A stretch of DNA of 45,314 bases from the IMG/VR virus record IMGVR_UViG_3300045988_037298; one strand, written 5' to 3'. Position numbers and translations under genes: made by a program. Below the pieces are notes generated by a model. The model had not been told where the DNA came from, did not search any database, and saw nothing but the letters and a program-made list of their open reading frames with translations. Origin of the DNA: a virus. Positions 1,988 to 33,446 of this stretch are shown one piece after another (the stretch's first letter is position 1; each line of letters starts with the position of its first letter).

Positions 1988-2024
1988 ATGTGGGGCTGAA
2001 ATTCACAATTGCTCGTTGTATCAT
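1988..2024 (+). promoter_or_regulatory. putative late promoter, copy A (ATGTGGGG-N23-TATCAT)
   Basis: Same 8-mer and same spacing as the copies at 22334 and 31102. It lies 30 nt upstream of the endolysin start. Confidence 0.5.
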
Positions 2025-2053
2025 GTACTTATCAATATGAAAGGAATGATATA

Positions 2054-3058
2054 ATGAGCAAATTACAGGAATTTTTAAACCTTGGTGATTATTACGCATC
2101 AAACGGCGGGTACCTTGAAAAGAAAAGTAATGCCTATCTGGATGATTTTAAAAAGAATGCAGGATATAACAATTACACTAAATTTGCAAGAGATGTGAAT
2201 AGATGGGGGCAGCCAGGATGCCAGGGGCAGCCGTGGTGCGCGGAGTACCAGTTTTGGAAACTGGTGAATGTTTTGGGAATTACAAAAGCCTTGCAGATTA
2301 TGGGCGGCGGATTTTATAACTGTGTGTCTATCACTAATCATGCTAAAGCAAACGGAACTTGGCGCAGCACGCCAAAAGTCGGCGCACTTGTAATCTTCCG
2401 CAATGGCTCCCATATTGGAAGTGTGCAGAGTTTAACCAGTTCAAACATTAACACAAATGAGGGAAATACTTCCAGTGCACCGGGAGTTGTAGCCAACGGA
2501 GGAGCAGTCCGTAACAAAACTTATGCTATCAATGATCCATCTATTGATGGTTATGTATGGATTGATTGGGAATCCTACGAGGATACCACAACCTGGAAAA
2601 AAACAGGAACCAGAGTAGCAATTGTGAATGATCTGTATGTCCGTGAAACACCGAATGGATATGTAATGGGTTCCATTGATAAAGATACTGTTGTTGATAT
2701 TGATGGAAAAACAAGTGGAAAGTGGACGCATGTAAAAGTTTCCGGAATTGGAATTGGCTGGATCTGGACTGGATACTTGGAAAAGGAGGGTGGATCCACA
2801 TCCGCTGCCATTACAGGAAAACAGGATAAGACACAGGTGCTTTTCAAGGGAAATGTAACTGCCACTGTGCTTAATGTGCGTACTTGGGCTGGAACTGAGT
2901 ACCCGAACATCAAAAAATACCCAAAGCTCAACCAGGGAAATGAAGTGGAAGTAATGAATTTTACCCAGAAAGATAAAAACGGTAGTAAGTGGTATTATGT
3001 CCGTATTTCTGGAAAGTATTATGGCTTTGTATCTGCAAAATATATCAAAAAGCAGTAA
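2054..3058 (+). CDS. endolysin: N-terminal CHAP amidase/peptidase plus two SH3-type cell-wall-binding repeats
   Basis: GQPWCAEYQFW (Cys) and GALVIFRNGSHIGSV (His) are CHAP motifs. Two SH3_3-like repeats are present (..VNDLYVRETPNG.., ..LNVRTWAGTEYP..WYYVRISGKYYGFVSAKYI). ATG 2054 is in frame with track ORF 2009-3058. Confidence 0.85.
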   Translation: MSKLQEFLNLGDYYASNGGYLEKKSNAYLDDFKKNAGYNNYTKFARDVNRWGQPGCQGQPWCAEYQFWKLVNVLGITKALQIMGGGFYNCVSITNHAKANGTWRSTPKVGALVIFRNGSHIGSVQSLTSSNINTNEGNTSSAPGVVANGGAVRNKTYAINDPSIDGYVWIDWESYEDTTTWKKTGTRVAIVNDLYVRETPNGYVMGSIDKDTVVDIDGKTSGKWTHVKVSGIGIGWIWTGYLEKEGGSTSAAITGKQDKTQVLFKGNVTATVLNVRTWAGTEYPNIKKYPKLNQGNEVEVMNFTQKDKNGSKWYYVRISGKYYGFVSAKYIKKQ

Positions 3059-3154: not shown

Positions 3155-4726
3155 TTATTTTTCTTGGATTTTCGGGAAAATGTCTAGCTGAAAACCAATC
3201 TCGTTGCCCTTCCCATAAGCGTTTTTAGTATCTTTTGAGTAGGCAACCTTTTCAATCAAACTCTTAAGCATTTTATTCTTCGATTCCGTGTCAAGGCTCC
3301 AATAGTTATCAAGTAGCTCTTCACAACGCGGGATAAAATCTGATTGTTGTTTTATAATGTTTTCGTCGTGTTTGATTTCTTCTTTTAATTTTTCTATAGT
3401 ATCGGAGCAAGACTGGATAGATGCGGATATTGTTTTGGCACGTTCAAGGAAAACCTCAGTGGTATAGATACCCTGTTCGAGTAGGTCATATTGTTTTGCT
3501 TTTTGGGCGTTTAAGCTTTCCAGCTCGTTTTCTTTTTCATGTATGAGATTTTGTTTAGAAATTATTGTTAAATCAATAGCCTGTGAAGATGTATTAATAT
3601 CATTGTTTAACTTATATTTCTCCACAATCTCCCTAATTCCATCAAGCACAGCTTTTTCAACCAGAGATAACTTGCTGCTCACTGTGGGGCAAGACGTATA
3701 TGGACACATGAGGGTATCTTCCTGCCCGCGCTTTTGATAAGGGCGGCGAACCATGGCGCGACCACATTTGCTGCAATAGACAATTCCGGAAAGCGGGTTG
3801 CGGATTGAGTTTTTTATACTGATTGGGCGAGGTGGGTTCTTTTTTCGTATTTCCTGTACAGAGTTAAATAGATCCTCTGATATAATAGCCGGATGTAATC
3901 CATCACAAATAAGAGTATCTTTTGATCGAGGACGTGTTTTAATTACCTGGCCATTTTGTATAGTTTTTACTGTTTTTCGGCCATTCCACCGGATTTTCCC
4001 GATGTATACCGGATTTGTTAGGATCCCCTGTATACTGGCAGGAGTCCAGTCGCCGCATAGTGCAGATTCTATTCCCATTTCATTTAATTTCCGTGCAATC
4101 TTCGCAACTCCAATTTGTTCGCAGCCATCACCGGCATACCAGGTGTAGATCATTTTTACAATCTCAGCTTGAGTCGGAACAGGTCGGAGAGTATAGCCTT
4201 TTTCTTTTTCGAGCTTAACTCTTTCGTATCCGTAAGGTGGTTTGTTGCCACAGTATTTCCCTTCTTTTACTGATGAGATCCTTCCGGCGTTCAGTCGGCG
4301 CTTGATGGTTTTATATTCTCTTCGGCTCATAAATAGTCCAAACTCAAAATACTCTTCATCAAATTCATTGTTCGGGTCGTATATTTTTGTTGGGGTAATA
4401 ATCTTCGTGTCGGAATATTGGAATGCTCTGGACACAACACCTTGGTCGATTGTGTCACCTCTGGCAAGACGTTCAACTTCCACAACCAGAACTCCATCCC
4501 ACATACCGGATTCTACCTCATGTAGAAGCTGCTGCATAACAGGACGGTCGGCGATAGTTTCTCCAGATACCACTTCACGGTAAATTGCACCCACAATGTA
4601 CTCTTTTTTCTTTGCGAGATCTAACAAGATCCGTTCATGTCTAGCAAGAGTTTCACCCTCTCCATGTGCTTCAGCTTCCCGATCAGCTCTGGATTTCCTT
4701 AGATAGATACATACCGATTCATTCAT
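3155..4726 (-). CDS. large serine recombinase (phage integrase candidate)
   Basis: 523 aa. The N-terminal resolvase domain has the catalytic Ser in YLRKSRADRE. It also has a recombinase domain, a zinc ribbon (CSKCGRAM..CPYTSCP) and a C-terminal coiled coil. Confidence 0.9.
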   Translation of the reverse strand: MNESVCIYLRKSRADREAEAHGEGETLARHERILLDLAKKKEYIVGAIYREVVSGETIADRPVMQQLLHEVESGMWDGVLVVEVERLARGDTIDQGVVSRAFQYSDTKIITPTKIYDPNNEFDEEYFEFGLFMSRREYKTIKRRLNAGRISSVKEGKYCGNKPPYGYERVKLEKEKGYTLRPVPTQAEIVKMIYTWYAGDGCEQIGVAKIARKLNEMGIESALCGDWTPASIQGILTNPVYIGKIRWNGRKTVKTIQNGQVIKTRPRSKDTLICDGLHPAIISEDLFNSVQEIRKKNPPRPISIKNSIRNPLSGIVYCSKCGRAMVRRPYQKRGQEDTLMCPYTSCPTVSSKLSLVEKAVLDGIREIVEKYKLNNDINTSSQAIDLTIISKQNLIHEKENELESLNAQKAKQYDLLEQGIYTTEVFLERAKTISASIQSCSDTIEKLKEEIKHDENIIKQQSDFIPRCEELLDNYWSLDTESKNKMLKSLIEKVAYSKDTKNAYGKGNEIGFQLDIFPKIQEK

Positions 4727-4973: not shown

Positions 4974-5882
4974 ATGAAAAGAAACAAGAAAATTTTAACA
5001 GTTATCACAATCTTATTGCTCATTGTATGTATGGCGGTTCCGGTATCGGCAGCGGGCAAGATCAATAAGAAAAAAGCCACTTTGAAAGTCGGTCAAACAT
5101 TACAATTAAAAGTAACCGGTACAAAGGGAAAGGTAAAATGGAAAAGTAGTAAGAAATCTGTTGCAACGGTATCTTCTAAGGGACGCGTAAAAGCAAAGAA
5201 AAAAGGATCCGCAACGATTACTGCAAAGGTCGGAAAAAAGAAATACACTTGTAAAGTTACCGTTAAAAAGCCAGCTACTAACAGTAATGGTGGTTTTAGT
5301 GGAAATACAAATGCGAATACAAATGCTAATACCAGCGGTAAAAAGAACGTTGTAACCTATCATGCGGAATCGACACCGTATGGAGCAGTGGCAATTCTGG
5401 AAAACCATTATGACTATACAGTTGATTTAACTGTTGAATTTGTGTATTATCTGAATGGTTCTATGATCGGAACAAGCAAAGGATATAATTACGCTTTTGC
5501 GCCACACTCAAAATGTGCGCTTCAAGGTTGGAATCATGATAAGACCTGGGATTCCTTCAAAATAAATTTGAAAATAGAAAAAGCTTCAAATACTATAACG
5601 AATAATTCTGGCATTCGCTATTCTTCGAATTTTGGAGATAACAACGTAATGGTTGAGGTGAAAAATGTAGGTAGAAAAAACTATTCCACTCAGATAGGAG
5701 TTGTATTTTATCAGAATGGAAGAATTGTAGGTTATAATTATAATTACGCCCATGTGGAAAATCCTGGATCAACTGCTTATCTTCAATTTAATTTTCCGTA
5801 TGACAGGGATTACAATGATATTATCCCGGATAGATACGAGGTATATGTAAATAATTCGTACACGTACAGCTGGATGAATTAA
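4974..5882 (+). CDS. secreted protein: signal peptide, Big_2-like Ig domain, Asn/Thr linker, two beta-sandwich (FxLYD-like) repeats
   Basis: MKRNKKILTVITILLLIVCMAVPVSA is a signal peptide. ATLKVGQTLQLKV..ATVSSKGRVKAKKKGSATITAKV is Big_2-like. There is an internal duplication (..VEFVYYLNGSMIGTSKGYNYAF.. / ..IGVVFYQNGRIVGYNYNYAH..). The gene has its own promoter and terminator. Confidence 0.75.
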   Translation: MKRNKKILTVITILLLIVCMAVPVSAAGKINKKKATLKVGQTLQLKVTGTKGKVKWKSSKKSVATVSSKGRVKAKKKGSATITAKVGKKKYTCKVTVKKPATNSNGGFSGNTNANTNANTSGKKNVVTYHAESTPYGAVAILENHYDYTVDLTVEFVYYLNGSMIGTSKGYNYAFAPHSKCALQGWNHDKTWDSFKINLKIEKASNTITNNSGIRYSSNFGDNNVMVEVKNVGRKNYSTQIGVVFYQNGRIVGYNYNYAHVENPGSTAYLQFNFPYDRDYNDIIPDRYEVYVNNSYTYSWMN

Positions 5883-22314: not shown

Positions 22315-22333
22315 TACTACAATTAATATTAAA

Positions 22334-22370
22334 ATGTGGGGACAAATTTTTCTGCCATGTATGGTAATAT
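22334..22370 (+). promoter_or_regulatory. putative late promoter, copy B (ATGTGGGG-N23-TAATAT with TGg extended -10)
   Basis: Same motif and spacing as copies A and C; it lies upstream of terS. Confidence 0.55.
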
Positions 22371-25773: not shown

Positions 25774-26205
25774 ATGAAGATTAATAATCATGTTGGAAAT
25801 GTACATATCAAATTCGATACAAAGCGGATTGATGGCAATTTGAAAGAAGCGCAAACGAAACTGAATATGCAGATTGTAGCGGACTGCGAGCCTTATGTAC
25901 CTTTCCAGCAAGGAGCATTGAGAAGTAGCGTAAGATACCCGCAGGGAATTGACGGTGGCGAGATTGAATATAATACTCCTTACGCTCATTATCTGTACAC
26001 GGGCGAGGTATATGGTCCGAATATTCCGCTCAAGGATGCACAATGCAATATTATCGGATGGACATCTCCACCTAAAAAATCACCCACAGGAAGAAGATTA
26101 CAATATCATACACCAGGGACGTCTGACCATTGGTTTGAGCGTGCTAAGCAGGAACATCTATCTGATTGGGTGAGGCTTGTAAAAGAAACGGCAGGTGGTA
26201 AATAA
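25774..26205 (+). CDS. putative minor capsid protein
   Basis: Position after the portal; motif ..IEYNTPYAHYLYTGE... Confidence 0.5.
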   Translation: MKINNHVGNVHIKFDTKRIDGNLKEAQTKLNMQIVADCEPYVPFQQGALRSSVRYPQGIDGGEIEYNTPYAHYLYTGEVYGPNIPLKDAQCNIIGWTSPPKKSPTGRRLQYHTPGTSDHWFERAKQEHLSDWVRLVKETAGGK

Positions 26206-27455
26206 TGCTTCCTCCAGAGTATTTCCACGGAAAAGAAAAAAAGATCCTTGCAATTTATCAAGAACTAGAAGATTTTATAATGACGGACATTTCCAGGCGT
26301 ATTCTCCAGACTGGCGGTATGACCGCCACAGCTGATCGGCTCATTTGGAAGCTCACGCAAATGGGAGAAAGCAGAGTTGCCATTGAACAGAAACTGCAGA
26401 AGCTTACAAAAATGACACAGCCAGAGCTTAGACGGATTCTGCGAAATGCCGTGATGACTTCCTGGGACAATGATAAAGATATCCTTTTAGGGATTGATGA
26501 GAATATAAGTCCACCATTGGAGAATCCAGAAGTGATAGCGGTGATGGATGCAGAGTTTAAAAAGACATTGGGAGAGCTTAGCAACCTGAGCAGGACAACC
26601 ATAAATCAATCTCAACGTGATCTAATTAATCTGCTGGACAAAGCCGAAATCCGTGTTGCTTCCGGTGTGCAATCCTACACCACTGCAATTTGTGATGTGT
26701 TGGACAATTATGCCAAAAAAGGAATTATGGTGGATTATCCAACAAGCGGTGCAAAAAGAACCCTTGAAGCAGCTGTGAGGTGCTGCGTGGTAACGTCAAT
26801 GAATCAGACAGCGGCGCAGATCACTAATCAGTATATTGTGCAGGCGAAGACAAATTATGTCCTTGTATCAGCCCATATGGGAGCCAGAACAGCACAGAAA
26901 GGACAGCCTCCTTGCGGAGATCATTCATCCTGGCAGGGAAAGCCTTACTCAATAGTTGGATCGGAACCAGGATATCCTAATCTTTTGGAAAACACTGGAT
27001 ATGATATAAGCCCGAAAACCGGACAGGGAACAGTTGTGGATCCGCACGGACTGCATGGGTGGAATTGCAAGCATAGTCACCAACCATGGGCGAAAGGCTT
27101 ACGGAATCCCTGGGCGGATGAACACAAGATGGATTCTGAAGAAAATAAAAAGATCTATGAAGATACCCAGAAGCAGCGAGCAATGGAGCGTTCTATTAGA
27201 GCGACTAAAAGAAAGCTGATAATGAAGAACGAAGAAATCAACTCAGATGATATACCGGATTCCGAAAAAGAAAAACTAAGATCGGAATATGATCGAATGG
27301 CGTTTCGGCTGACTGAACAGAATAAGGAGTATAATAAATTCTGTGAGGAAAACAACCTTGCAGCACAATATTACCGAAACAAGGTAGCAGACTTTGGATA
27401 TAAGCAGCATTCCAGGGCAAATGCAGGGGCAAAAAGATTTATGAGGGCAAAGTGA
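26205..27455 (+). CDS. minor capsid / head-morphogenesis protein (Phage_min_cap2 / MuF-like)
   Basis: 416 aa; ILAIYQELEDFIMTDISRRI..; position in the head module. Confidence 0.7.
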   Translation: MLPPEYFHGKEKKILAIYQELEDFIMTDISRRILQTGGMTATADRLIWKLTQMGESRVAIEQKLQKLTKMTQPELRRILRNAVMTSWDNDKDILLGIDENISPPLENPEVIAVMDAEFKKTLGELSNLSRTTINQSQRDLINLLDKAEIRVASGVQSYTTAICDVLDNYAKKGIMVDYPTSGAKRTLEAAVRCCVVTSMNQTAAQITNQYIVQAKTNYVLVSAHMGARTAQKGQPPCGDHSSWQGKPYSIVGSEPGYPNLLENTGYDISPKTGQGTVVDPHGLHGWNCKHSHQPWAKGLRNPWADEHKMDSEENKKIYEDTQKQRAMERSIRATKRKLIMKNEEINSDDIPDSEKEKLRSEYDRMAFRLTEQNKEYNKFCEENNLAAQYYRNKVADFGYKQHSRANAGAKRFMRAK

Positions 27456-27462
27456 GGTAGAT

Positions 27463-27843
27463 ATGGAAAGATGGGTATATTTTAATCCGAATCCAGCCGG
27501 GAATCGTGTAGGCGACTGTGCTGTCCGGGCGATATGCAAGGCGTTAGAACTGGATTGGGAAACGGTATTTACAGGATTAATGGTATATGCTTGCTCGCTA
27601 TCAGATATGCCAAGCGCTAATTATGTATGGGGATCATATTTGGCAAGGCATGGATATCACAGAAAGCTTGTGGAACAGTCAGAGAGGTATATTTATACAG
27701 TCAATGATTTCTGCGCAGATCATCCTACTGGTACATACATTCTTTGCATAGATGGCCATGTGGTGACGGTACAAGATGGCAAATATTACGATACATGGGA
27801 TTCCGGAAATGAAGTCCCGGTATACTACTGGGAAAAGGAGTAG
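27463..27843 (+). CDS. putative papain-like cysteine peptidase-fold protein
   Basis: NPNPAGNRVGDCAVRAI (Cys) ... IDGHVVTVQDGKYYDTWDSG (His, Asp). The catalytic-triad order is inferred. Confidence 0.4.
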   Translation: MERWVYFNPNPAGNRVGDCAVRAICKALELDWETVFTGLMVYACSLSDMPSANYVWGSYLARHGYHRKLVEQSERYIYTVNDFCADHPTGTYILCIDGHVVTVQDGKYYDTWDSGNEVPVYYWEKE

Positions 27844-27847
27844 CTAA

Positions 27848-28153
27848 ATGAGCATACAGGAATTTATTCAATTTTTTCTTTCAGTCTGCGGAGGGGTATC
27901 AATTGTTGGAGGGGCAGCAGCTGTAATCCTTAAGTGGATTGCTCCGGCATTCCGACTCAACAAGCGAGTTGAGACACTGGAAGAACATGATAAGCGAGAT
28001 TACGAGAGTCTTCAGAGGATTGCGGAACGTGATTCATTGATTCTGGAAGTGTTATCAACCATGCTGGATAGTCAGATCAGTGGGAATAATGTGGAAGAAT
28101 TAAAAAAAACAAAACAGAAGCTTACAAATTATCTTGCACAGAATCAGCGTTAA
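27848..28153 (+). CDS. N-terminal TM plus coiled-coil protein (BhlA/holin-like architecture)
   Basis: FIQFFLSVCGGVSIVGGAAAVILKWI followed by a charged helical tail. Confidence 0.45.
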   Translation: MSIQEFIQFFLSVCGGVSIVGGAAAVILKWIAPAFRLNKRVETLEEHDKRDYESLQRIAERDSLILEVLSTMLDSQISGNNVEELKKTKQKLTNYLAQNQR

Positions 28154-28176
28154 TTGCATTAATAAGAGGTATTCTC

Positions 28177-28377
28177 ATGAAATTATATGTGTTCACAAAG
28201 AAAGATATAGACAGATTCTTAGTAGAGTGTAATTTTACACCGGATGAAGAAAGATTGTTCCGGTTGAGATGTAAAGAATACACGCTTGAATACTGTGCTG
28301 AACAGATGAACGTGAGCATATCTACGGCGAAACGATTAAGCCGCCGAGTAAACAATAAAATAATCAAAGTGTGCTGA
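28177..28377 (+). CDS. small sigma-70 region-4-like HTH protein
   Basis: PDEERLFRLRCKEYTLEYCAEQMNVSISTAKRLSRRV. Confidence 0.5.
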   Translation: MKLYVFTKKDIDRFLVECNFTPDEERLFRLRCKEYTLEYCAEQMNVSISTAKRLSRRVNNKIIKVC

Positions 28378-28397
28378 TACTTTTTGGATACTAATTA

Positions 28398-28431
28398 GAG
28401 CCAGAAACGACCTGTTTCCGGTTCTTTTTTT
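28398..28431 (+). terminator. rho-independent terminator
   Basis: Stem GAGCCAGAAAC/GTTTCCGGTTC (one mismatch, one G-U pair) followed by TTTTTTT. Confidence 0.75.
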
Positions 28432-28465
28432 ATGTAAAAATATAATCAGAAAGGCGGTGTATAAG

Positions 28466-28936
28466 ATGGCATTATATAACAATCCTTATCAATATAGTTT
28501 TGGCGTTCCTGGGCAGATGAACCAGTTCCAGCAACAGCCTGTCCAGATGCCGGCTCAACCAGTACAGCAACCCCAACAGAATAATAGCGGTATCCTGTGG
28601 GTATCCGGCGAAGTCGGCGCAAAATCCTATCTGGTAGCGCCCGGAACAAGCGTTTTACTGATGGACAGTGAGAGCGAAAAGTTCTACATAAAATCTACAG
28701 ACGTTTCTGGTATGCCGCAGCCATTACGGACGTTTGAGTATCACGAGGTAGGCACTCAGATGCCACATAAACAGCCTGCTCAGAACATGGATAATAAATA
28801 TGTCACCAGACAGGAATACGATGATTTAAAAGCCAAATGTGACGCTATAGCAAGTCGATTAAATTCATTTTCTGAACCTGTTAGGGCTAATACCGTACAG
28901 GAATCAGCGACCAAGGGAGGAAATGCAGATGAGTAA
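28466..28936 (+). CDS. hypothetical protein with a Q/P-rich N-terminus
   Basis: ATG 28466 is in frame with the track ORF. N-terminus NQFQQQPVQMPAQPVQQPQQNN, then a globular segment ILWVSGEVGAKSYLVAPGTSVLLMD... Confidence 0.65.
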   Translation: MALYNNPYQYSFGVPGQMNQFQQQPVQMPAQPVQQPQQNNSGILWVSGEVGAKSYLVAPGTSVLLMDSESEKFYIKSTDVSGMPQPLRTFEYHEVGTQMPHKQPAQNMDNKYVTRQEYDDLKAKCDAIASRLNSFSEPVRANTVQESATKGGNADE

Positions 28937-29150
28937 TCCATTATTTAACGTACTTGGCGGCGGGATGCCGCAGGGAAACGGACCAATGCAGATGATACAG
29001 CAGTTTATGCAGTTTAGGCAGAATTTTAAGGGGGACCCGAAAGCAGAAGTTGAGAAGATGCTGCAGTCTGGACGGATTTCTCAGCAGCAACTTAATCAGG
29101 TCCAACAGATGGCAGGACAATTCCAGCACATGTTGAAAGGAATGAAATAG
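28929..29150 (+). CDS. hypothetical Q/M-rich small protein
   Basis: ATG 28929 lies 8 nt after GGAGG. Sequence MSNPLFNVLGGGMPQGNGPMQMIQQFMQFRQNF... Confidence 0.6.
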   Translation: MSNPLFNVLGGGMPQGNGPMQMIQQFMQFRQNFKGDPKAEVEKMLQSGRISQQQLNQVQQMAGQFQHMLKGMK

Positions 29151-29178
29151 TACATTACAATCTGGCCAGATTGATGTA
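29151..29178. promoter_or_regulatory. 16-bp perfect palindrome CAATCTGG/CCAGATTG with flanking TACAT/ATGTA (operator or hairpin)
   Basis: Read directly, between the 28929 and 29205 genes. No T-run follows. Confidence 0.4.
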
Positions 29179-29204
29179 AATACACAATAAAGGAGATTAT
29201 AACT

Positions 29205-29984
29205 ATGGATGGAAATTATAGCTTAGCAGATATTGCCGCTGCTACTGGAAACGGTAGAAATAATGACGGCATGTTTGGTGGAGATGGTAGCTGGTGGATT
29301 ATTGTTTTATTCATTTTTGCTTTCTTCGGATGGGGAAACAACGGCTGGGGCAACAATGGAAACGGCGGCGGATATACGGCCACGGCAGCTACTCAGGCAG
29401 ACATTCAGAGAGGATTTGACAATTCCGCAGTAATTAGCAAACTTGACGGAATCAATAACGGCCTGTGTGATGGATTCTATGCCATGAATAATGGTATGCT
29501 TACCGGATTTAATGGAATCAACACAAACATCATGCAGACCGGCTTTGGCATCCAGCAGGCTATTAACGCTGACACTGTAGCGAACATGCAGAATACCAAT
29601 GCACTCCAGGCACAGCTTGCAAACTGCTGCTGCGAAACTAGAGAAGCAATCCAGGGTGTGAATTACAACATGGCTCAGAATACCTGCGCACTCCAGAACA
29701 CCATGAACAACAACACTAGAGATATTATCGACAGCCAAAACGCCGGAACAAGGGCAATCCTTGATTACCTTTGCAATGAAAAGATTTCTAACCTGCAGGC
29801 TGAAAACAACGACCTCAGACGCGCCGCTTCTCAGGACCGCCAGAGCGCACTGCTTACAACTGCAATGGCTTCTCAGACACAGCAGCTCATTAATGCGATT
29901 AATCCAGCACCGATTCCGGCATATCAGGTTCCTAACCCGAACACATATTACGGATGCGGATGTAACACCGGATGCAATTGTTGA
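29205..29984 (+). CDS. membrane-anchored N/Q/G-rich protein with a Cys-rich C-terminal tail
   Basis: AAAGGAG upstream. N-terminus GDGSWWIIVLFIFAFFGWGNNGWGNNGNGGG, a long N/Q-rich helical region containing CCC, and the tail YYGCGCNTGCNC. Confidence 0.7.
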   Translation: MDGNYSLADIAAATGNGRNNDGMFGGDGSWWIIVLFIFAFFGWGNNGWGNNGNGGGYTATAATQADIQRGFDNSAVISKLDGINNGLCDGFYAMNNGMLTGFNGINTNIMQTGFGIQQAINADTVANMQNTNALQAQLANCCCETREAIQGVNYNMAQNTCALQNTMNNNTRDIIDSQNAGTRAILDYLCNEKISNLQAENNDLRRAASQDRQSALLTTAMASQTQQLINAINPAPIPAYQVPNPNTYYGCGCNTGCNC

Positions 29985-30046
29985 CAACTTCATATCGAGA
30001 GTATCTTTCGATCGATTCGGATGTCGGCTTATGCCGTATTACACAG

Positions 30047-30072
30047 AGGGGCAGGCTGAGACCTGTCCTTTT
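30047..30072 (+). terminator. intrinsic terminator or attenuator within the cassette
   Basis: Stem GGGCAGG/CCTGTCC followed by TTTT. Confidence 0.5.
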
Positions 30073-30094
30073 GTGATATGAAAGGAGTATTTTT

Positions 30095-30517
30095 ATGTCA
30101 GAATTTACAAATGTAGCTGCTCAGACTGTAGCAGCAAATGGAAACGTAGTATTTTCAAACACAGCAGTTAAAGGCTCTAACTGTATTCAGCACAGAGAGG
30201 GAAGCGGAATCATTACCCTGAGAGGACTGACCAACCAGTGTAAAGCAAGATTCTTCGTGGATTTCTCTGGTAACATCGCAATTCCAACAGGCGGTACTGT
30301 AGGAGCTATTTCTCTGGCTATTGCAATCTCTGGTGAGCCGGTTCTTTCTTCTCAAATGATTTCCACGCCGGCAGCAGTAGACCAGTACAACAATGTGTCC
30401 TCTGGCATCTATATTGATGTACCACGTGGATGTTGCGTTAATATTGCAGTAGAGAACACAAGCGATCAGGCTATTTCTGTTGCGAACGCAAATATTGTCG
30501 TGACTAGAGAAGCGTAG
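30095..30517 (+). CDS. C1q/TNF-like (BclA C-terminal-domain-like) beta-jelly-roll protein
   Basis: The pattern of alternating beta strands (NGNVVFSNTAV..GIITLRG..ARFFVDFSGNIA..ISLAIAISGEPV..GCCVNIAVENTS..ANIVVTREA) resembles exosporium BclA-C-type domains. This is pattern recognition only. Confidence 0.45.
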   Translation: MSEFTNVAAQTVAANGNVVFSNTAVKGSNCIQHREGSGIITLRGLTNQCKARFFVDFSGNIAIPTGGTVGAISLAIAISGEPVLSSQMISTPAAVDQYNNVSSGIYIDVPRGCCVNIAVENTSDQAISVANANIVVTREA

Positions 30518-30528
30518 GAGGTGCAGTT

Positions 30529-31092
30529 ATGAGAGATATCAAGGATTTATGCGCAAGGATAGAAGACGAGCTTGCAAAAATCGCAGATAGTGGGCTGACC
30601 ACTGGAAACTTGGAAATGACATACAAGTTGATTGATATGTACAAAGATATAAAAAATACGCAGTACTGGGACAAAAAGGTGGAGTATTACAACGCCGTCC
30701 TTGATGAAATGCGTAGCGGATACAATGACGATTACAGCGAGCGCGGAAGAAAACGTGGCGGCATGGGGAGATACAGCCGCAGTGATGGAAGAATGATGTA
30801 CCCAGATTATGATCGTGGCACCTCTTACGGTGATGAAAGTCGCGACTACGGAACCGGAAGAGGAAATTATAGCCGATCTGATGGAAGAGACACATATAAC
30901 GACTACATGACGCAGAAGCAGAGCTATCGCTCCGGAAAGTCTGAAGACTGCAAAAGAAAAATGCTTGCCGCACTGGAAGAACACTTGGATGAGCTTACCA
31001 CAGAATTGAGCGATGTGTCCAAGGACGCAGAGTGCAGGGAAGAGCGAGATCTTGTTAAGAGATACGTTGATAAGTTAAGAAATATGCTTTAA
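30529..31092 (+). CDS. helical protein with a central R/G/Y/D/S-rich disordered repeat region
   Basis: GGAGGTG upstream. Internal repeat YSRSDGRMMYPDY / YSRSDGRDTYNDY. Confidence 0.65.
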   Translation: MRDIKDLCARIEDELAKIADSGLTTGNLEMTYKLIDMYKDIKNTQYWDKKVEYYNAVLDEMRSGYNDDYSERGRKRGGMGRYSRSDGRMMYPDYDRGTSYGDESRDYGTGRGNYSRSDGRDTYNDYMTQKQSYRSGKSEDCKRKMLAALEEHLDELTTELSDVSKDAECREERDLVKRYVDKLRNML

Positions 31093-31101
31093 TTTGGTTA
31101 A

Positions 31102-31138
31102 ATGTGGGGACAACTTTTTTTACAGAATGTGATACTAT
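31102..31138 (+). promoter_or_regulatory. putative late promoter, copy C (ATGTGGGG-N23-TACTAT with TGa extended -10)
   Basis: Same motif and spacing as copies A and B. It lies upstream of the structured leader, the tRNA-like gene and the head-tail operon. Confidence 0.55.
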
Positions 31139-31417
31139 AATCTTGCAAGGCGTGGTGAACCTTGTAGGGCTTGCTGATTAGAAGTTTTTGCTTTCTTTTT
31201 CGTTTCATGTCCTCCTTTCTTTGTGAATATGTCCTTAATAGAAACAGATTTGAGCGGAATCTGGAGGTTGAAAAGCGGATGCAATTTCCGGCATATTCAT
31301 TAGTCAGTTCGACTGACTGGTAACACCTCCTTATAAATGAATCAACATTTCCGTGAAAGTCGGATAGTGGCAGGCATAACACGATAAATACCTTGCTAAC
31401 CCGGGAATCCGGGTTAA

Positions 31418-31491
31418 TGGAATGTAGCTCAGTTGGAAGAGCGGAGGACGCATAGTCCTTGACACCGCAGGTTCGAGTCCTGCCTTTCCAA
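31418..31491 (+). tRNA. tRNA-like gene, anticodon CAT (Met/Ile2-type), with non-canonical features
   Basis: Cloverleaf: acceptor TGGAATG/CTTTCCA (one U-U mismatch), D arm GCTC-AGTTGGAA-GAGC, anticodon arm GAGGA-CGCATAG-TCCTT, T arm GCAGG-TTCGAGT-CCTGC. It has G at position 33, a 6-nt variable loop and no encoded CCA. Confidence 0.55.
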
Positions 31492-31568: not shown

Positions 31569-32201
31569 ATGCAGAAACTTATTGACACATTAAAATCATT
31601 TGGAATTGAAATCCCGGAGGATAAGCAGGCAGATGTTAAAAAGGCACTCTCTGAGCATTATAAGAATGCTAAGGAAGTTGCAAAAACCCTGTCGAAAGTC
31701 GAGGGAGAACGTGATAACTGGAAAGAACGTGCTGAGACAGCAGAAGAAACCTTAAAAGGTTTTGACGGTATCGACCCGGCGAACATTCAGACAGAGCTTG
31801 CTGGATGGAAGAAGAAGGCTGAGGACGCAGAGAAGGAATTCAATGCGAAAATCTATGACCGCGATTTCTCAGACGCACTTAAAACAGCACTTGATGATGT
31901 TAAATTTTCCAGTGAGGCTGCAAAGAAGTCTGTTATGGCAGACATCAAGGAAGCAGGATTGAAGCTGAAAGACGGTAAAATCCTTGGACTGAATGATTTG
32001 ATTGAGCAGATGAAGCAGTCTGACGCATCCGCTTTTGTGGATGAATCTCAGCAGCAGGCTCAGCAGAACCAGGCAAGGTTTACTACTCATGTTGGACAGC
32101 AGCAGACACTGGGAAACATGACAAAGAAAGATATCGAAGCAATCAAAGACCCGTCCGAGAGACAGGCCGCAATCGCCCAGAATATCCAGTTATTCCAGTG
32201 A
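31569..32201 (+). CDS. scaffolding protein (GP20-like)
   Basis: Helical and acidic, 210 aa, directly upstream of the major capsid gene. Confidence 0.7.
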   Translation: MQKLIDTLKSFGIEIPEDKQADVKKALSEHYKNAKEVAKTLSKVEGERDNWKERAETAEETLKGFDGIDPANIQTELAGWKKKAEDAEKEFNAKIYDRDFSDALKTALDDVKFSSEAAKKSVMADIKEAGLKLKDGKILGLNDLIEQMKQSDASAFVDESQQQAQQNQARFTTHVGQQQTLGNMTKKDIEAIKDPSERQAAIAQNIQLFQ

Positions 32202-32279
32202 TTTTTTTACACCGACTATACACCAGAGTATAGTTGCTAACCCAATACCTTAACAATTATGGGTAGAAAGGATTTTTAT
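32202..32279 (+). promoter_or_regulatory. conserved leader element, copy 1 (TTACACC, hairpin, GCTAACC, CCTT..AGAAAGGA)
   Basis: Shares ordered blocks with 35767-35864. See the finding at 32202-32279. Confidence 0.45.
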
Positions 32280-33446
32280 ATGGCAGCAAAAGCTAATCTT
32301 ATTATGAGCAATGATATCCAGGTCACAGCACGTGAGATTGACTTTGTTACCAGATTCGAAAGAAACTGGGAACACTTACGTGAAATCCTTGGTATCATGC
32401 GTCCAATCAAAAAGACACCCGGAGCGGTTCTTAAATCAAAATATGCAGAAGGTACATTACAGGATGGAAATGTTGGTGAGGGTGAAGAAATCCCTTACAG
32501 CAAATTCACTGTAAAAGAAAAGCCTTATGCAGAAATGAGTATTGAGAAGTACGCAAAGGCTGTATCTATCGAAGCGATCAAGGATCACGGTTATGAGAAC
32601 GCTGTTCAAATGACCGATGATGAATTCCTCTTCCAGCTTCAGACCAATGTTACTGAAAGATTTTACAACTATCTGAAAACAGGTACTCTCTCATTCACGG
32701 AAACCACTTTCCAGATGGCTCTGGCAATGGCTAAAGGCCGTGTAGAAAACAAATTCAAACAGATGCACAGAAATGTAACTGGTGTTGTTGGGTTTGTAAA
32801 TATTCTGGACGTGTATGAGTATATCGGTGCAGCTGATATCACTATTCAGAACCAGTTCGGCTTCCAGTATATGAAAGACTTCCTGGGATTTAACACAATC
32901 TTCCTGTTATCTGACAGCGAGATTCCAAGAGGAACAGTAATCGCTACACCTGTAGAGAACATCGTTCTTTACTACGTGGATCCGAACGAATCTGATTTCG
33001 CAAGAGCAGGACTTGTATACACTGTATCCGGTGAGACGAATCTGATCGGATTCCATACACAGGGCAACTACCACACAGCAGTGTCTGAAGCATTCGCGAT
33101 CATGGGACTTACCCTCTTTGCAGAGTACATTGATGCTATTGCCGTAGGAACTATCAACACAACTCAGACGCTTGGAACTCTGACTGTAAATTCTGCGGCA
33201 GGAAGTAAGAGTGGAGACACAAAAGTGACTATTACTCCGAAAAAAGCAAGCGCAGGAAATGTGTACAAGTACAAAGTTGCATCATCTGAGACTACTGTAG
33301 ATTATGGCCAGAATGTGAAGAACTGGACTGCGTGGGATGGAGAAGCTGACATTACCGCAGCAACAGGGCAGGTAATCACAGTGGTTGAATGCGACAGCAC
33401 ATATAAGGCACTGAGCGCCGGACACGCGACTGTAACAGCAAAATGA
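32280..33446 (+). CDS. major capsid protein with a C-terminal Ig-like domain
   Basis: ATG 32280 is in frame with track ORF 32259. Size and position after the scaffold fit. C-terminal segment TLTVNSAAGSKSGDTKVTITPKK..ATVTAK is Big_2-like. Confidence 0.8.
   Translation: MAAKANLIMSNDIQVTAREIDFVTRFERNWEHLREILGIMRPIKKTPGAVLKSKYAEGTLQDGNVGEGEEIPYSKFTVKEKPYAEMSIEKYAKAVSIEAIKDHGYENAVQMTDDEFLFQLQTNVTERFYNYLKTGTLSFTETTFQMALAMAKGRVENKFKQMHRNVTGVVGFVNILDVYEYIGAADITIQNQFGFQYMKDFLGFNTIFLLSDSEIPRGTVIATPVENIVLYYVDPNESDFARAGLVYTVSGETNLIGFHTQGNYHTAVSEAFAIMGLTLFAEYIDAIAVGTINTTQTLGTLTVNSAAGSKSGDTKVTITPKKASAGNVYKYKVASSETTVDYGQNVKNWTAWDGEADITAATGQVITVVECDSTYKALSAGHATVTAK

Follow-up and report, generated by a model that had tools for sequence, protein, structure and literature searches.

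In the viral genome held as IMG/VR record IMGVR_UViG_3300045988_037298, the interval between the MuF/minor capsid 2 gene (26205-27455) and the scaffold gene (31569-32201) is filled by eight co-oriented open reading frames (ORFs), here called A126, B101, C66 and g1 to g5, all on the plus strand. The whole 45,314-nucleotide stretch that was analysed is referred to as the window. Its gene content, with a serine recombinase, a lysin and late genes, is that of a temperate siphovirus-type phage. The late genes follow the order GP3-type terminase small subunit (terS), terminase large subunit (terL), portal, Minor_capsid_2, MuF/minor capsid 2, scaffold and capsid (32259-33446). We show that positions 27463-31092 represent a single instance of an accessory module that is self-contained and widespread among gut tailed viruses. 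An initial annotation, prepared from the sequence alone, had delimited a cassette of the last five genes (g1 to g5, 28466-31092). All five were recovered on the plus strand with the compositions described for them, and the proposed starts are those supported by homologues.

Gene order is kept in individually named loci (L001-L011, L092-L097, L099 and L102-L107) and in a sample of 80 diverse IMG/VR loci retrieved with a divergent g3 profile, as traced by tblastn and profile mapping. Of the 80 loci in the diverse sample, 74 have g1 upstream of g3, and 35 have g4 following g3. The near-constant core is g1 plus g3, with g2 between them wherever it is detectable (found in this place in L001-L011, including Clostridium perfringens phage XP41-N3), and g4, g5, A126 and a C66-type helix-turn-helix (HTH) gene are frequent add-ons. 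A126 travels with g1-g4 in several lineages, and the proposed five-gene boundary does not correspond to an evolutionary unit. That limit was set by a local terminator.

The position of the module differs widely among the thousands of gut phage genomes that carry it. Dulem virus 35, Agathobacter and Faecalimonas contigs from metagenome-assembled genomes, and Enterocloster prophages (L002, L008, L009, L092-L096) have it between MuF and scaffold. A position after the lysis genes is occupied in Butyrivibrio phage Ceridwen (A126-g1-g2-g3-g4), in a Subdoligranulum contig, in bajarodcaudo virus 5 and in a Clostridia prophage whose end abuts host genes (L011, L103-L105). The module follows the integrase in Dulem virus 39 and the antirepressor in XP41-N3, and in Eubacterium ramulus it stands at the element edge beside rplT. 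Early regions are a further location. The crAss-like cr116_1 has g3 between the terS and capsid genes. An integrase adjoins in 8 of the diverse loci, and for 30 of 79 g3 genes a contig end is no more than 3 kb away. Window-type MuF, scaffold or major capsid protein (MCP) genes were found beside g3 in none of the 80 diverse loci. All gene tables inspected show the module running in the same direction as the MuF, scaffold and lysin genes. The earlier proposal that the block is accessory cargo, not part of canonical morphogenesis, is borne out by natural deletions and by the finding that other phages carry the module in at least four kinds of position.

Among close relatives the picture is one of fixation. 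The comparison covered up to 80 IMG/VR relatives (L012-L091) with a capsid protein identity of at least 94%, and presence was counted in the 64 that span both the MuF and the scaffold flanks. All eight genes occur in 64 of 64, despite swapped MuF, terL and Minor_capsid_2 alleles (33% vs 96%). Presence of the block in all relatives, which the initial annotation had named as an outcome that would speak against its proposal, is thus what is found within this lineage. Beyond the closest relatives, presence between MuF and scaffold varies, and parts of the block are missing in the Enterocloster loci L095 and L097. In L095, a single ORF fuses g1 residues 1-54 to g5 residues 130-187 and g2-g5 are otherwise gone. 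L097 retains g1 and a g2 fragment, and has lost g3-g5. Both loci keep the MuF, C66, scaffold and capsid genes. Enterocloster loci with identical A126 differ in module content. The relatives L012-L091 also show sharp mosaicism of their own, with two unrelated alleles of MuF (~96% vs ~33% identity), Minor_capsid_2 (97% vs 27%) and terL (98% vs 50%), and a breakpoint close to the MuF/A126 junction.

These patterns bear on whether g1-g5 are ordinary essential head-morphogenesis genes with decoration, scaffold-like or assembly roles. The fixed presence in the 64 close relatives, the constant placement between MuF and scaffold there and in L002, L009 and L092 (79-82% capsid identity), and a conservation as strong as that of the capsid protein would all fit such a role. 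However, MuF, scaffold and capsid persist in L095 and L097, most other phages have these genes outside their head modules, and the g4 allele varies independently of the capsid allele (29% identity against 79-89% for the MCP). No likeness to known head proteins was found in PHROGs or Pfam, in line with the earlier statement that none of the five resembles a canonical virion or morphogenesis protein. An essential morphogenetic role is therefore highly improbable.

The Enterocloster loci carry further cargo at the edges of the module. At the C66-g1 junction, L093 (9016-10483, minus strand) and L096 (8970-10397) contain a Cas7-like cassette or an AntA gene. The gene with the Cas7 Pfam match comes with two small ORFs, and the other cargo is an AntA/ORF6C antirepressor. 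Between g5 and scaffold, opposite-strand three-gene HTH_3 cassettes (L092, L093, L096, L097) and a Cys_rich_KTR gene were seen. From the varied insertions and deletions in Enterocloster it follows that the MuF-scaffold gap is a cargo hot spot. The gap is open to cargo because the scaffold-capsid unit has its own leader (RAGATH-21, with GP20-b added in Enterocloster and a tRNA in the window).

Phage morons are autonomous accessory transcription units located between conserved genes of HK97- and lambda-like phages. The block likewise sits between two conserved late units, has hairpin terminators at its flanks in most loci, is missing in some relatives and is relocated in unrelated phages, and other cargo is found at its junctions too. 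It differs from morons in having five to eight genes instead of one, in lacking compositional contrast, in being fixed in the 64 close relatives, in its constant late-gene orientation and in that a promoter was not found.

The genes g1-g5 are real and under selection as strong as the capsid gene. Purifying selection was found on all five among the relatives with at least 94% capsid identity (dN/dS 0.033-0.090 at dS 0.34-1.4). Individual dN/dS values are 0.09 for g1, 0.046 for g2, 0.033 for g4 and 0.017 for C66, with 0.049 for capsid and 0.044 for scaffold. The block had been described as richer in G+C than its surroundings. The excess is real but small (0.452 vs 0.415-0.417 in the flanking late genes), amounting to about one standard deviation of the late-gene reference (0.419 +/- 0.032) and equalling scaffold and connector. 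The relative synonymous codon usage distance of the block (0.344) is within the range of random late-gene sets used as control (0.290 +/- 0.047). A foreign island by composition was consequently rejected, the G+C excess being trivial and the codon usage ordinary.

The signature protein of the module is g3 (29205-29984), a protein of 259 residues with a match to phrog_16490. A Gly/aromatic transmembrane segment had been proposed for its N-terminus. A hydrophobic stretch flanked by Gly and Trp is indeed present at residues 23-41, although its KD19 score of 1.68 is borderline for a transmembrane segment. The N/Q-rich helical region and the Cys-rich tail are as claimed: N and Q account for 26% of residues 60-235, and the ten cysteines include CCC at 141-143 and the C-terminal CGCNTGCNC. 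The family comprises 2106 clusters at 50% identity (E<=1e-3), made up of stand-alone proteins of ~230-300 residues. Its members share the Gly/Trp-flanked hydrophobic segment, an invariant CCC, a PxPVPAY motif and a GCGC..GC tail (alignment A11). A protein of crAss-like cr116_1 annotated as "spike protein/glycoprotein" aligns with the g3 profile (hhalign probability 99.9, E 2e-31). The names under which crAss g3 homologues were deposited, "outer capsid protein/viral fiber" or "spike protein", are probably owed to coiled-coil similarity only.

The partners of g3 are mostly small and of biased composition, and the earlier numerical description of g1, g2 and g5 was right. The 156-residue g1 (28466-28936; phrog_21718) has a Q/P-rich N-terminus with 12 Q and 6 P in residues 1-45, a conserved central domain and a C-terminal helix. 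Its ATG at 28466 is backed by homologue N-termini (alignment A8). The helical, Q/M-rich g2 (28929-29150; 73 residues; phrog_22984) contains 21% Q and 12% M. Its start is the second ATG, which has proper Shine-Dalgarno (SD) spacing and agrees with homologues starting MNPLF or MANPLF. The 187-residue g5 (30529-31092; phrog_28802) has helical ends around a central region rich in R, G, Y, D and S, which make up 74% of residues 63-140, with an internal repeat and a 34-nt direct repeat at 30759 and 30855. It was found in L002, L008, L009 and L092-L096; Ceridwen either lacks it or has a strongly diverged copy. Neither a signal peptide nor a second hydrophobic segment was seen in g1, g2 or g5. Strong SD sites had been claimed for all five genes. 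This holds for g2 (GGGAGG), g3 (AAGGAG), g4 (AAAGGAG) and g5 (AGGAGG), but g1 has a weaker site, AAAGGCGG.

Database annotation contributes little to the function of these proteins. Every component is annotated as hypothetical or falls in a PHROG of unknown function, as g1-g5 and A126 all do. No Pfam or NCBIfam match was obtained for g1-g5, and no meaningful one in PADLOC. Scans of all eight interval proteins and of partner proteins from other loci against Pfam, NCBIfam and PADLOC were uninformative, as were PDB sequence and profile searches with g1, g3, g4 and A126.

The first gene of the interval, A126 (27463-27843; 126 residues; phrog_3754), encodes a putative minimal papain-like Cys-His-Asp peptidase. 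Residues C19, H99 and D110 are invariant in 44-47 homologues. In the AlphaFold2 model (pLDDT 93.6), helix 19-28 begins at C19, strand 99-104 begins at H99 and D110 closes strand 107-110, a layout that corresponds to the papain-like arrangement. Foldseek matches are weak (Josephin-2, 6pgv, E 0.1, probability 0.80, TM-score 0.48; tegument deubiquitinase 8adc), with nothing at E<=0.001. No Pfam, NCBIfam or PDB sequence match was obtained for A126. The gene accompanies g1-g4 in Ceridwen (L001), L007 and L011, where it is directly upstream of g1. In Eubacterium ramulus-type elements, an HExxH-like ORF of 106-107 residues with a weak SprT-like match (E 0.04) stands right after g5 (L005 11130-11450, L006 11361-11684, L102 10130-10450, L106 6045-6368). 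These elements thus have a metallopeptidase where other lineages carry the papain-like A126.

Two small genes follow A126 in the window. B101 (27848-28153; 101 residues) has a hydrophobic N-terminal segment (KD19 2.15 at residues 10-28) and a helical tail, and is linked to A126 and C66 in this lineage. It occurs in 64 of 64 close relatives (93% mean identity) and in Enterocloster loci (39%), and has no family match in PHROGs, Pfam or NCBIfam. C66 (28177-28377; 66 residues) is a putative stand-alone HTH protein of the sigma-70 region 4/LuxR-GerE type and a candidate regulator of the module. It matches phrog_1190, "RNA polymerase sigma factor" (1.9e-6), with sub-threshold matches to TIGR02937 (6e-5, 22.7 bits vs a cut-off of 42.9) and Sigma70_r4 (0.007, 16.3 vs 24.1). 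The gene at the same position in L106 bears a precomputed Pfam GerE match. C66 homologues lie ahead of the module in L002, L005, L008, L009 and L092-L097, and small HTH-like genes recognised by eye in the ORF lists do so in L007 and L011. A C66-type HTH is found upstream of the module in most hand-inspected Firmicutes-phage loci. Tandem GATACT repeats after C66 were considered as a binding site and rejected, being unconserved in L002 and L009 and not enriched in the window.

The 140-residue g4 (30095-30517) is a stand-alone C1q/TNF-like jelly-roll protein of the BclA-CTD or ExsF-BxpB type. The AlphaFold2 monomer model is all-beta and of high quality (pLDDT 95.5, pTM 0.88). Foldseek against the PDB (probability 1.00) returned 9h38 (E 1e-7, TM-score 0.72-0.77), 8d02, 7r1m and 9h3d (0.76-0.78), 1wck and 3twi (~0.7) and also 1rj7. 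The best structural matches are BclA, F-BclA and ExsF/BxpB; TM-scores for these and for EDA and C1q are 0.70-0.78. The matches besides the exosporium proteins are distal fibre knobs, namely the cyanophage A-1(L) fibre (8ke9), the phi812 spike knob (9eul), C1q and EDA. The fold is common among BFVD gut-phage proteins of 135-145 residues (TM-score 0.82-0.89). The proposed C1q/BclA-C-like jelly-roll is thus confirmed at the level of fold only, with a sequence identity of 11-14%. No Pfam or NCBIfam match was found at E<=0.1, and no relevant PDB sequence or profile match. A hydrophobic stretch with KD19 1.68 is a beta-strand in the model, which is a soluble fold.

At least 7970 g4 homologues were counted at 90% clustering, among which G112-C113-C114 is invariant. 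In close relatives no protein of the region is better conserved than g4 (97.6% mean identity). Its identity falls to 29% in Enterocloster phages though their capsid proteins are 79-89% identical. g4 is thus uncoupled from the capsid allele, and it is optional, being present in just 35 of the 80 diverse loci. Such behaviour is typical of exchangeable distal domains. In XP41-N3 (L003 7670-8047), the place of g4 is taken by an unrelated, beta-rich protein of 125 residues with the Cys-rich N-terminus MTCNRRCNCCNRR (MTCNRRCNCC...) and no Pfam or NCBIfam match. This N-terminus resembles the N-terminal connectors of endospore-appendage (Ena) subunits. A kinship of g4 to F-ENA/DUF4183 was dropped, as no Pfam match connects them.

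The resemblance of g4 to spore proteins deserves consideration, since lysogenic conversion of the spore or cell surface had been put forward for the block. BclA-CTD, the F-BclA tip and ExsFA/BxpB of the Bacillus exosporium are described as C1q/TNF-like jelly-roll trimers. g4 shares this fold over its full length (E 1e-7 to 1e-5), and ExsFA/BxpB is, like g4, a stand-alone domain of ~140 residues lacking a signal peptide. The likeness has limits, as the identity is low, g4 has no collagen-like stalk, is known as a monomer model and is phage-encoded, including in a Butyrivibrio phage. No exosporium-targeting N-terminus or collagen-like GXX repeats were found in g4, which is all globular, and no GXX repeats in its neighbours. 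The late spore-coat circuit of Bacillus subtilis comprises the 74-residue GerE, the Q-rich GerQ and the transglutaminase Tgl with its papain-like core. The module likewise combines a small HTH protein of the GerE/sigma region 4 type, Q-rich proteins and a small Cys-His-Asp protein. Yet there are no family-level matches to GerQ, Tgl or coat proteins, and the hosts of the module include non-sporulating organisms.

The host range of the module and of g3 is broad. Recorded Firmicutes hosts are Eubacterium ramulus, Enterocloster and Clostridium perfringens, groups that include spore-formers. Butyrivibrio fibrisolvens, the host of Ceridwen, does not form spores. Solely a lytic cycle was observed for Ceridwen on this host (PMC7372960). 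By tblastn, the g3 family was found in many Crassvirales, in C3_41T2LP, a cultured phage of Bacteroides uniformis, and in two viruses recorded with a Methanomassiliicoccales host. A Methanobrevibacter-binned contig carries g3 and g4. Homology of g1, g4 or g5 to the g3 neighbours in crAss-like and Bacteroides phages was not detected, and only g3 is demonstrably shared with them. A 77-residue R/D/Y-rich protein was discarded as a relative of g5, the likeness being compositional only. A syntenic gene set lies downstream of g3 in a crAss-like phage (L098 4414-7389) and in C3_41T2LP (L100 5962-8234). It consists of a beta-rich Cys-containing protein, a phrog_28898 protein, an R/D/Y/E-rich protein of 74-77 residues and an HExxH protein of 131-154 residues. 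In C3_41T2LP, the tail of the phrog_28898 protein matches phrog_473, "virion structural protein" (1.4e-8), and the HExxH protein is annotated as a PolyVal metallopeptidase.

Under a spore or cell-surface conversion scheme, g4 and the Cys-rich g3 would join the coat or exosporium, Q-rich substrates would be cross-linked or cut by A126, and a GerE-like regulator would control the genes. The exosporium matches of g4, the GerE/LuxR-type HTH of C66, the sporulating groups among the hosts and a lack of signal peptides that suits mother-cell assembly are in keeping with this scheme. But A126 and g1-g4 occur in the lytic-only Ceridwen, collagen-like repeats are lacking, spore proteins are not matched in Pfam or NCBIfam even at E 0.1, and the module is co-oriented with late lytic genes. 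The lytic-only Ceridwen and the g3 homologues in crAss-like, Bacteroides and methanogen-assigned viruses make a spore-specific or purely lysogenic role unlikely. As a general function, spore or surface conversion is very unlikely given these hosts.

The module has a recognisable 5' boundary. In the window, this element (28397-28441, plus strand) consists of a hairpin at 28397-28425 followed by a T-run and ATGTAAAAAT. The hairpin has a dG of -12.6 kcal/mol and a z-score of -4.1 and is trailed by UUCUUUUUUU, which makes the previously noted intrinsic terminator just upstream of g1 credible. In eight representative loci from ~6-7 independent lineages, a hairpin of unrelated sequence is followed by a near-invariant T-run-ATG(C/T)N-AAAAT before the first module gene. 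This first gene is g1 or A126, and a short ORF precedes g1 in L005, L006 and L106. Across 1.37 Mb of loci there are 22 occurrences of the motif T5+ATG[CTG]N1-2A2-4T, and 18 of them fall within 260 nt upstream of g1 or A126, where ~0.8 would be expected by chance. The element could mark a recombination boundary, or it could combine a terminator with a site for an activator or antiterminator. Ahead of g1 in the window, nothing convincing as a sigma-A promoter was found. A TATAAT between the upstream hairpin and g1 was rejected, as the transcript would start inside the SD site and a -35 box is missing.

Other hairpins received mixed support. The palindrome noted at 29151-29178 exists but is marginal (dG -7, z -1.95). 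The putative internal terminator at 30047-72 belongs to a very stable stem-loop in the g3-g4 spacer (30042-30075, plus strand; dG -22.6, z -6.4). Its U run lies within the stem, and it is not a canonical terminator because no U-tract follows. In other loci, an ORF of 63-76 residues occupies the position of this stem-loop. Intergenic spacers are 94-98% identical in relatives (5' boundary spacer 97.7%, g3-g4 spacer 95.5%) despite the synonymous divergence, and the spacers therefore carry function. Terminators follow g5 in five lineages. In keeping with the transcriptional insulation proposed for the block, hairpin terminators bracket the module in most loci, but the window has no terminator after g5.

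We tentatively propose that the module builds a late, dispensable assembly of anchor, stalk and knob, carried by the virion or released with virions. This is a possible reading, held with reserve, that we place just slightly ahead of the alternatives. Expression would be late, through a dedicated control region made up of the HTH gene, the hairpin and the T-run/ATGYNAAAAT element. The lack of signal peptides and the co-orientation with late genes suggest that the products probably assemble in the cytoplasm late in infection. In such an assembly, the hydrophobic N-terminus of g3 would be the anchor, its helical region would oligomerise into a stalk clamped by a ring of the invariant CCC motifs, and its Cys-rich C-terminus would form the tip. 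g4 would trimerise into an exchangeable C1q-like knob at the distal end. Q-rich g1 and Met/Gln-rich g2 may serve the solubility or assembly of g3, with g2 a plausible shield of the g3 hydrophobic segment. g5 might be an accessory matrix or assembly factor, and A126 might process one of the module proteins. The assembly would act as an accessory adhesin or surface structure not required for capsid building. Anchored coiled-coil fibres with a distal knob are known from reovirus sigma-1, the adenovirus fibre, phi29 head fibres and C1q-tipped tail fibres. g3 likewise combines an N-terminal hydrophobic anchor with a long helical region, and the jelly-roll knob gene g4 lies next to it. In contrast to these fibres, knob and stalk are on separate polypeptides.

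Several points weigh against such an assembly. No experiment or proteome places a module product in a virion. The fold match of A126 is not significant, and no promoter was identified for the module. The module hops among unrelated virion types (siphovirus lineages, with g3 also in crAss-like and archaeal viruses), which is awkward for docking. Its commonest position is the prophage end beside an integrase, flanked by terminators, and a prophage end next to the integrase is a classic site for lysogen-expressed genes. The g3 segment could be a true membrane anchor, with assembly at the inner membrane face. Cys clusters, when they occur in the cytoplasmic proteins of a strict anaerobe, are a sign of metal binding and not of cross-links.

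Some of these points lead to a cell-directed moron. Here g3 would anchor a platform with g1, g2, g4 and g5 at the inner face of the membrane in the lysogen or infected cell, for exclusion, defence or counter-defence, or lysis tuning. The cytoplasmic membrane is common to Firmicutes, Bacteroidota and methanogens, and would explain the host breadth of g3 and the portability of the module. Positions at the prophage end beside host genes or integrase, close to contig ends, are of the moron type, hairpin terminators stand on both sides of the module in most loci, and the same gap houses the Cas7-like gene, AntA and opposite-strand HTH_3 triads. The tail of ZorA gives a weak PADLOC match to g3 (E 0.004, 13.9 bits). 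Nevertheless, PADLOC returned no significant match and no recognisable effector enzyme was found (g5-Cas11a at E 0.033). The module is always oriented with the late genes, unlike the neighbouring opposite-strand cargo, and the g3 hydrophobic stretch is short and lacks flanking positive charges. To our knowledge, a low-complexity module of five to seven genes is unlike the known exclusion factors, which are single proteins. A cell-directed role appears somewhat doubtful on balance.

The proximity to MuF suggests yet another role, as capsid-internal or ejection cargo. g3 would then be a pilot-type protein packaged with MuF and injected with the DNA, g2 a chaperone of its hydrophobic segment and A126 the enzyme that processes the cargo. 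The DNA pilot protein H of phiX174 has a Gly-rich hydrophobic N-terminus followed by a long helical region rich in Q, N and A. g3 has the same layout, in a sequence style that we take to be like that of protein H, and in this lineage the g3 module adjoins MuF. It differs from protein H in the lack of sequence or profile similarity, in its variable genome position and in Cys motifs without a counterpart. The module directly follows MuF/minor capsid 2 and precedes scaffold here, g3 of cr116_1 lies between terS and capsid, and peptidase genes stand alongside (A126; the SprT-like ORFs of L005, L006 and L106; the PolyVal metallopeptidase of the Bacteroides phage). Most loci are, however, distant from head genes, and the deletion variants have intact head modules. 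A compact g4 jelly-roll trimer is unlikely to pass the tail channel, and packaging needs phage-specific signals, which is at odds with the portability of the module. We regard ejection cargo as unlikely.

A broader possibility is that the g1-g2-g3 core with exchangeable knob, peptidase and HTH is a portable, so far undescribed supramolecular system of gut viruses, an anchor-stalk-knob or matrix structure that would self-assemble, be clamped by cysteines or metal and work whatever the virion type or host envelope. We consider this quite doubtful. If true, such a portable system would explain g3 across Clostridia phages, Bacteroidales phages and gut-methanogen viruses, and would represent an adaptation to the gut habitat, for example mucus or particle adhesion or the shielding of released virions, not to a specific host. 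Accessory genes are not usually shared, as g3 is, among viruses recorded on Gram-positive, Gram-negative and archaeal gut hosts. This spread suggests a role linked with the habitat or with some universal cell structure, and in both cases gut phage ecology would be concerned. There is a modest chance of a new kind of viral structure.

The moron, the C1q-like knob and the cargo hot spot are known concepts. In the searchable literature there appears to be no description of the module, of its boundary element or of the spread of g3 across domains. Literature searches on RAGATH-21, BclA-like phage proteins and the crAss "spike protein" label turned up nothing about the module. A natural unit, a 5' boundary marker, one fold, a candidate enzyme and regulator, and natural deletion variants as controls are now defined, and cultured carriers exist in Ceridwen (module) and Bacteroides phage C3_41T2LP (g3 homologue).

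The right boundary of the module is followed by elements of the scaffold-capsid unit. The 14-mer AAATGTGGGGACAA (31100-31113, plus strand), outside the module, marks the start of this unit. It recurs exactly at 22332-22345 just before terS, with one more copy at two mismatches, against a chance expectation of 0.57. Both exact copies are followed by a T-run and a -10-like box. The placement before terS and before the scaffold leader fits a shared late control element, and AAATGTGGGGACAA is a candidate phage-specific late promoter or activator site. Dulem virus 35 does not show it at the corresponding position.

The 476-nt gap before scaffold contains a RAGATH-21 RNA (31224-31299; 93 bits) and a tRNA-Met (31418-31491). 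Wherever this head module occurs, RAGATH-21 precedes scaffold, and L095 and L097 are no exception. Besides the window, the observations on this gap cover L002, L009, L013, L092, L095 and L097. Both RNAs were rejected as parts of the cassette, since RAGATH-21 stays with scaffold where the cassette is missing. In both the window and L002, a conserved CCTCCTTTCTTTG comes shortly before RAGATH-21, and a GP20-b motif directly follows RAGATH-21 in Enterocloster phages. The tRNA slot before scaffold is variable, with a median identity of 76% and two tRNAs in L013. Ceridwen carries a RAGATH-18 RNA (L001 1702-1774), and a borderline skipping-rope RNA was detected in the g5-scaffold interval of the Agathobacter contig (L008 6071-6148). 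At the other end of the window, the CHAP/SH3 lysin (2009-3058) and the large serine recombinase (3155-4726, minus strand) are followed by a 302-residue protein with a Big_2 Ig-like domain (4974-5882), which adjoins the recombinase in a position typical for lysogeny-associated cargo.

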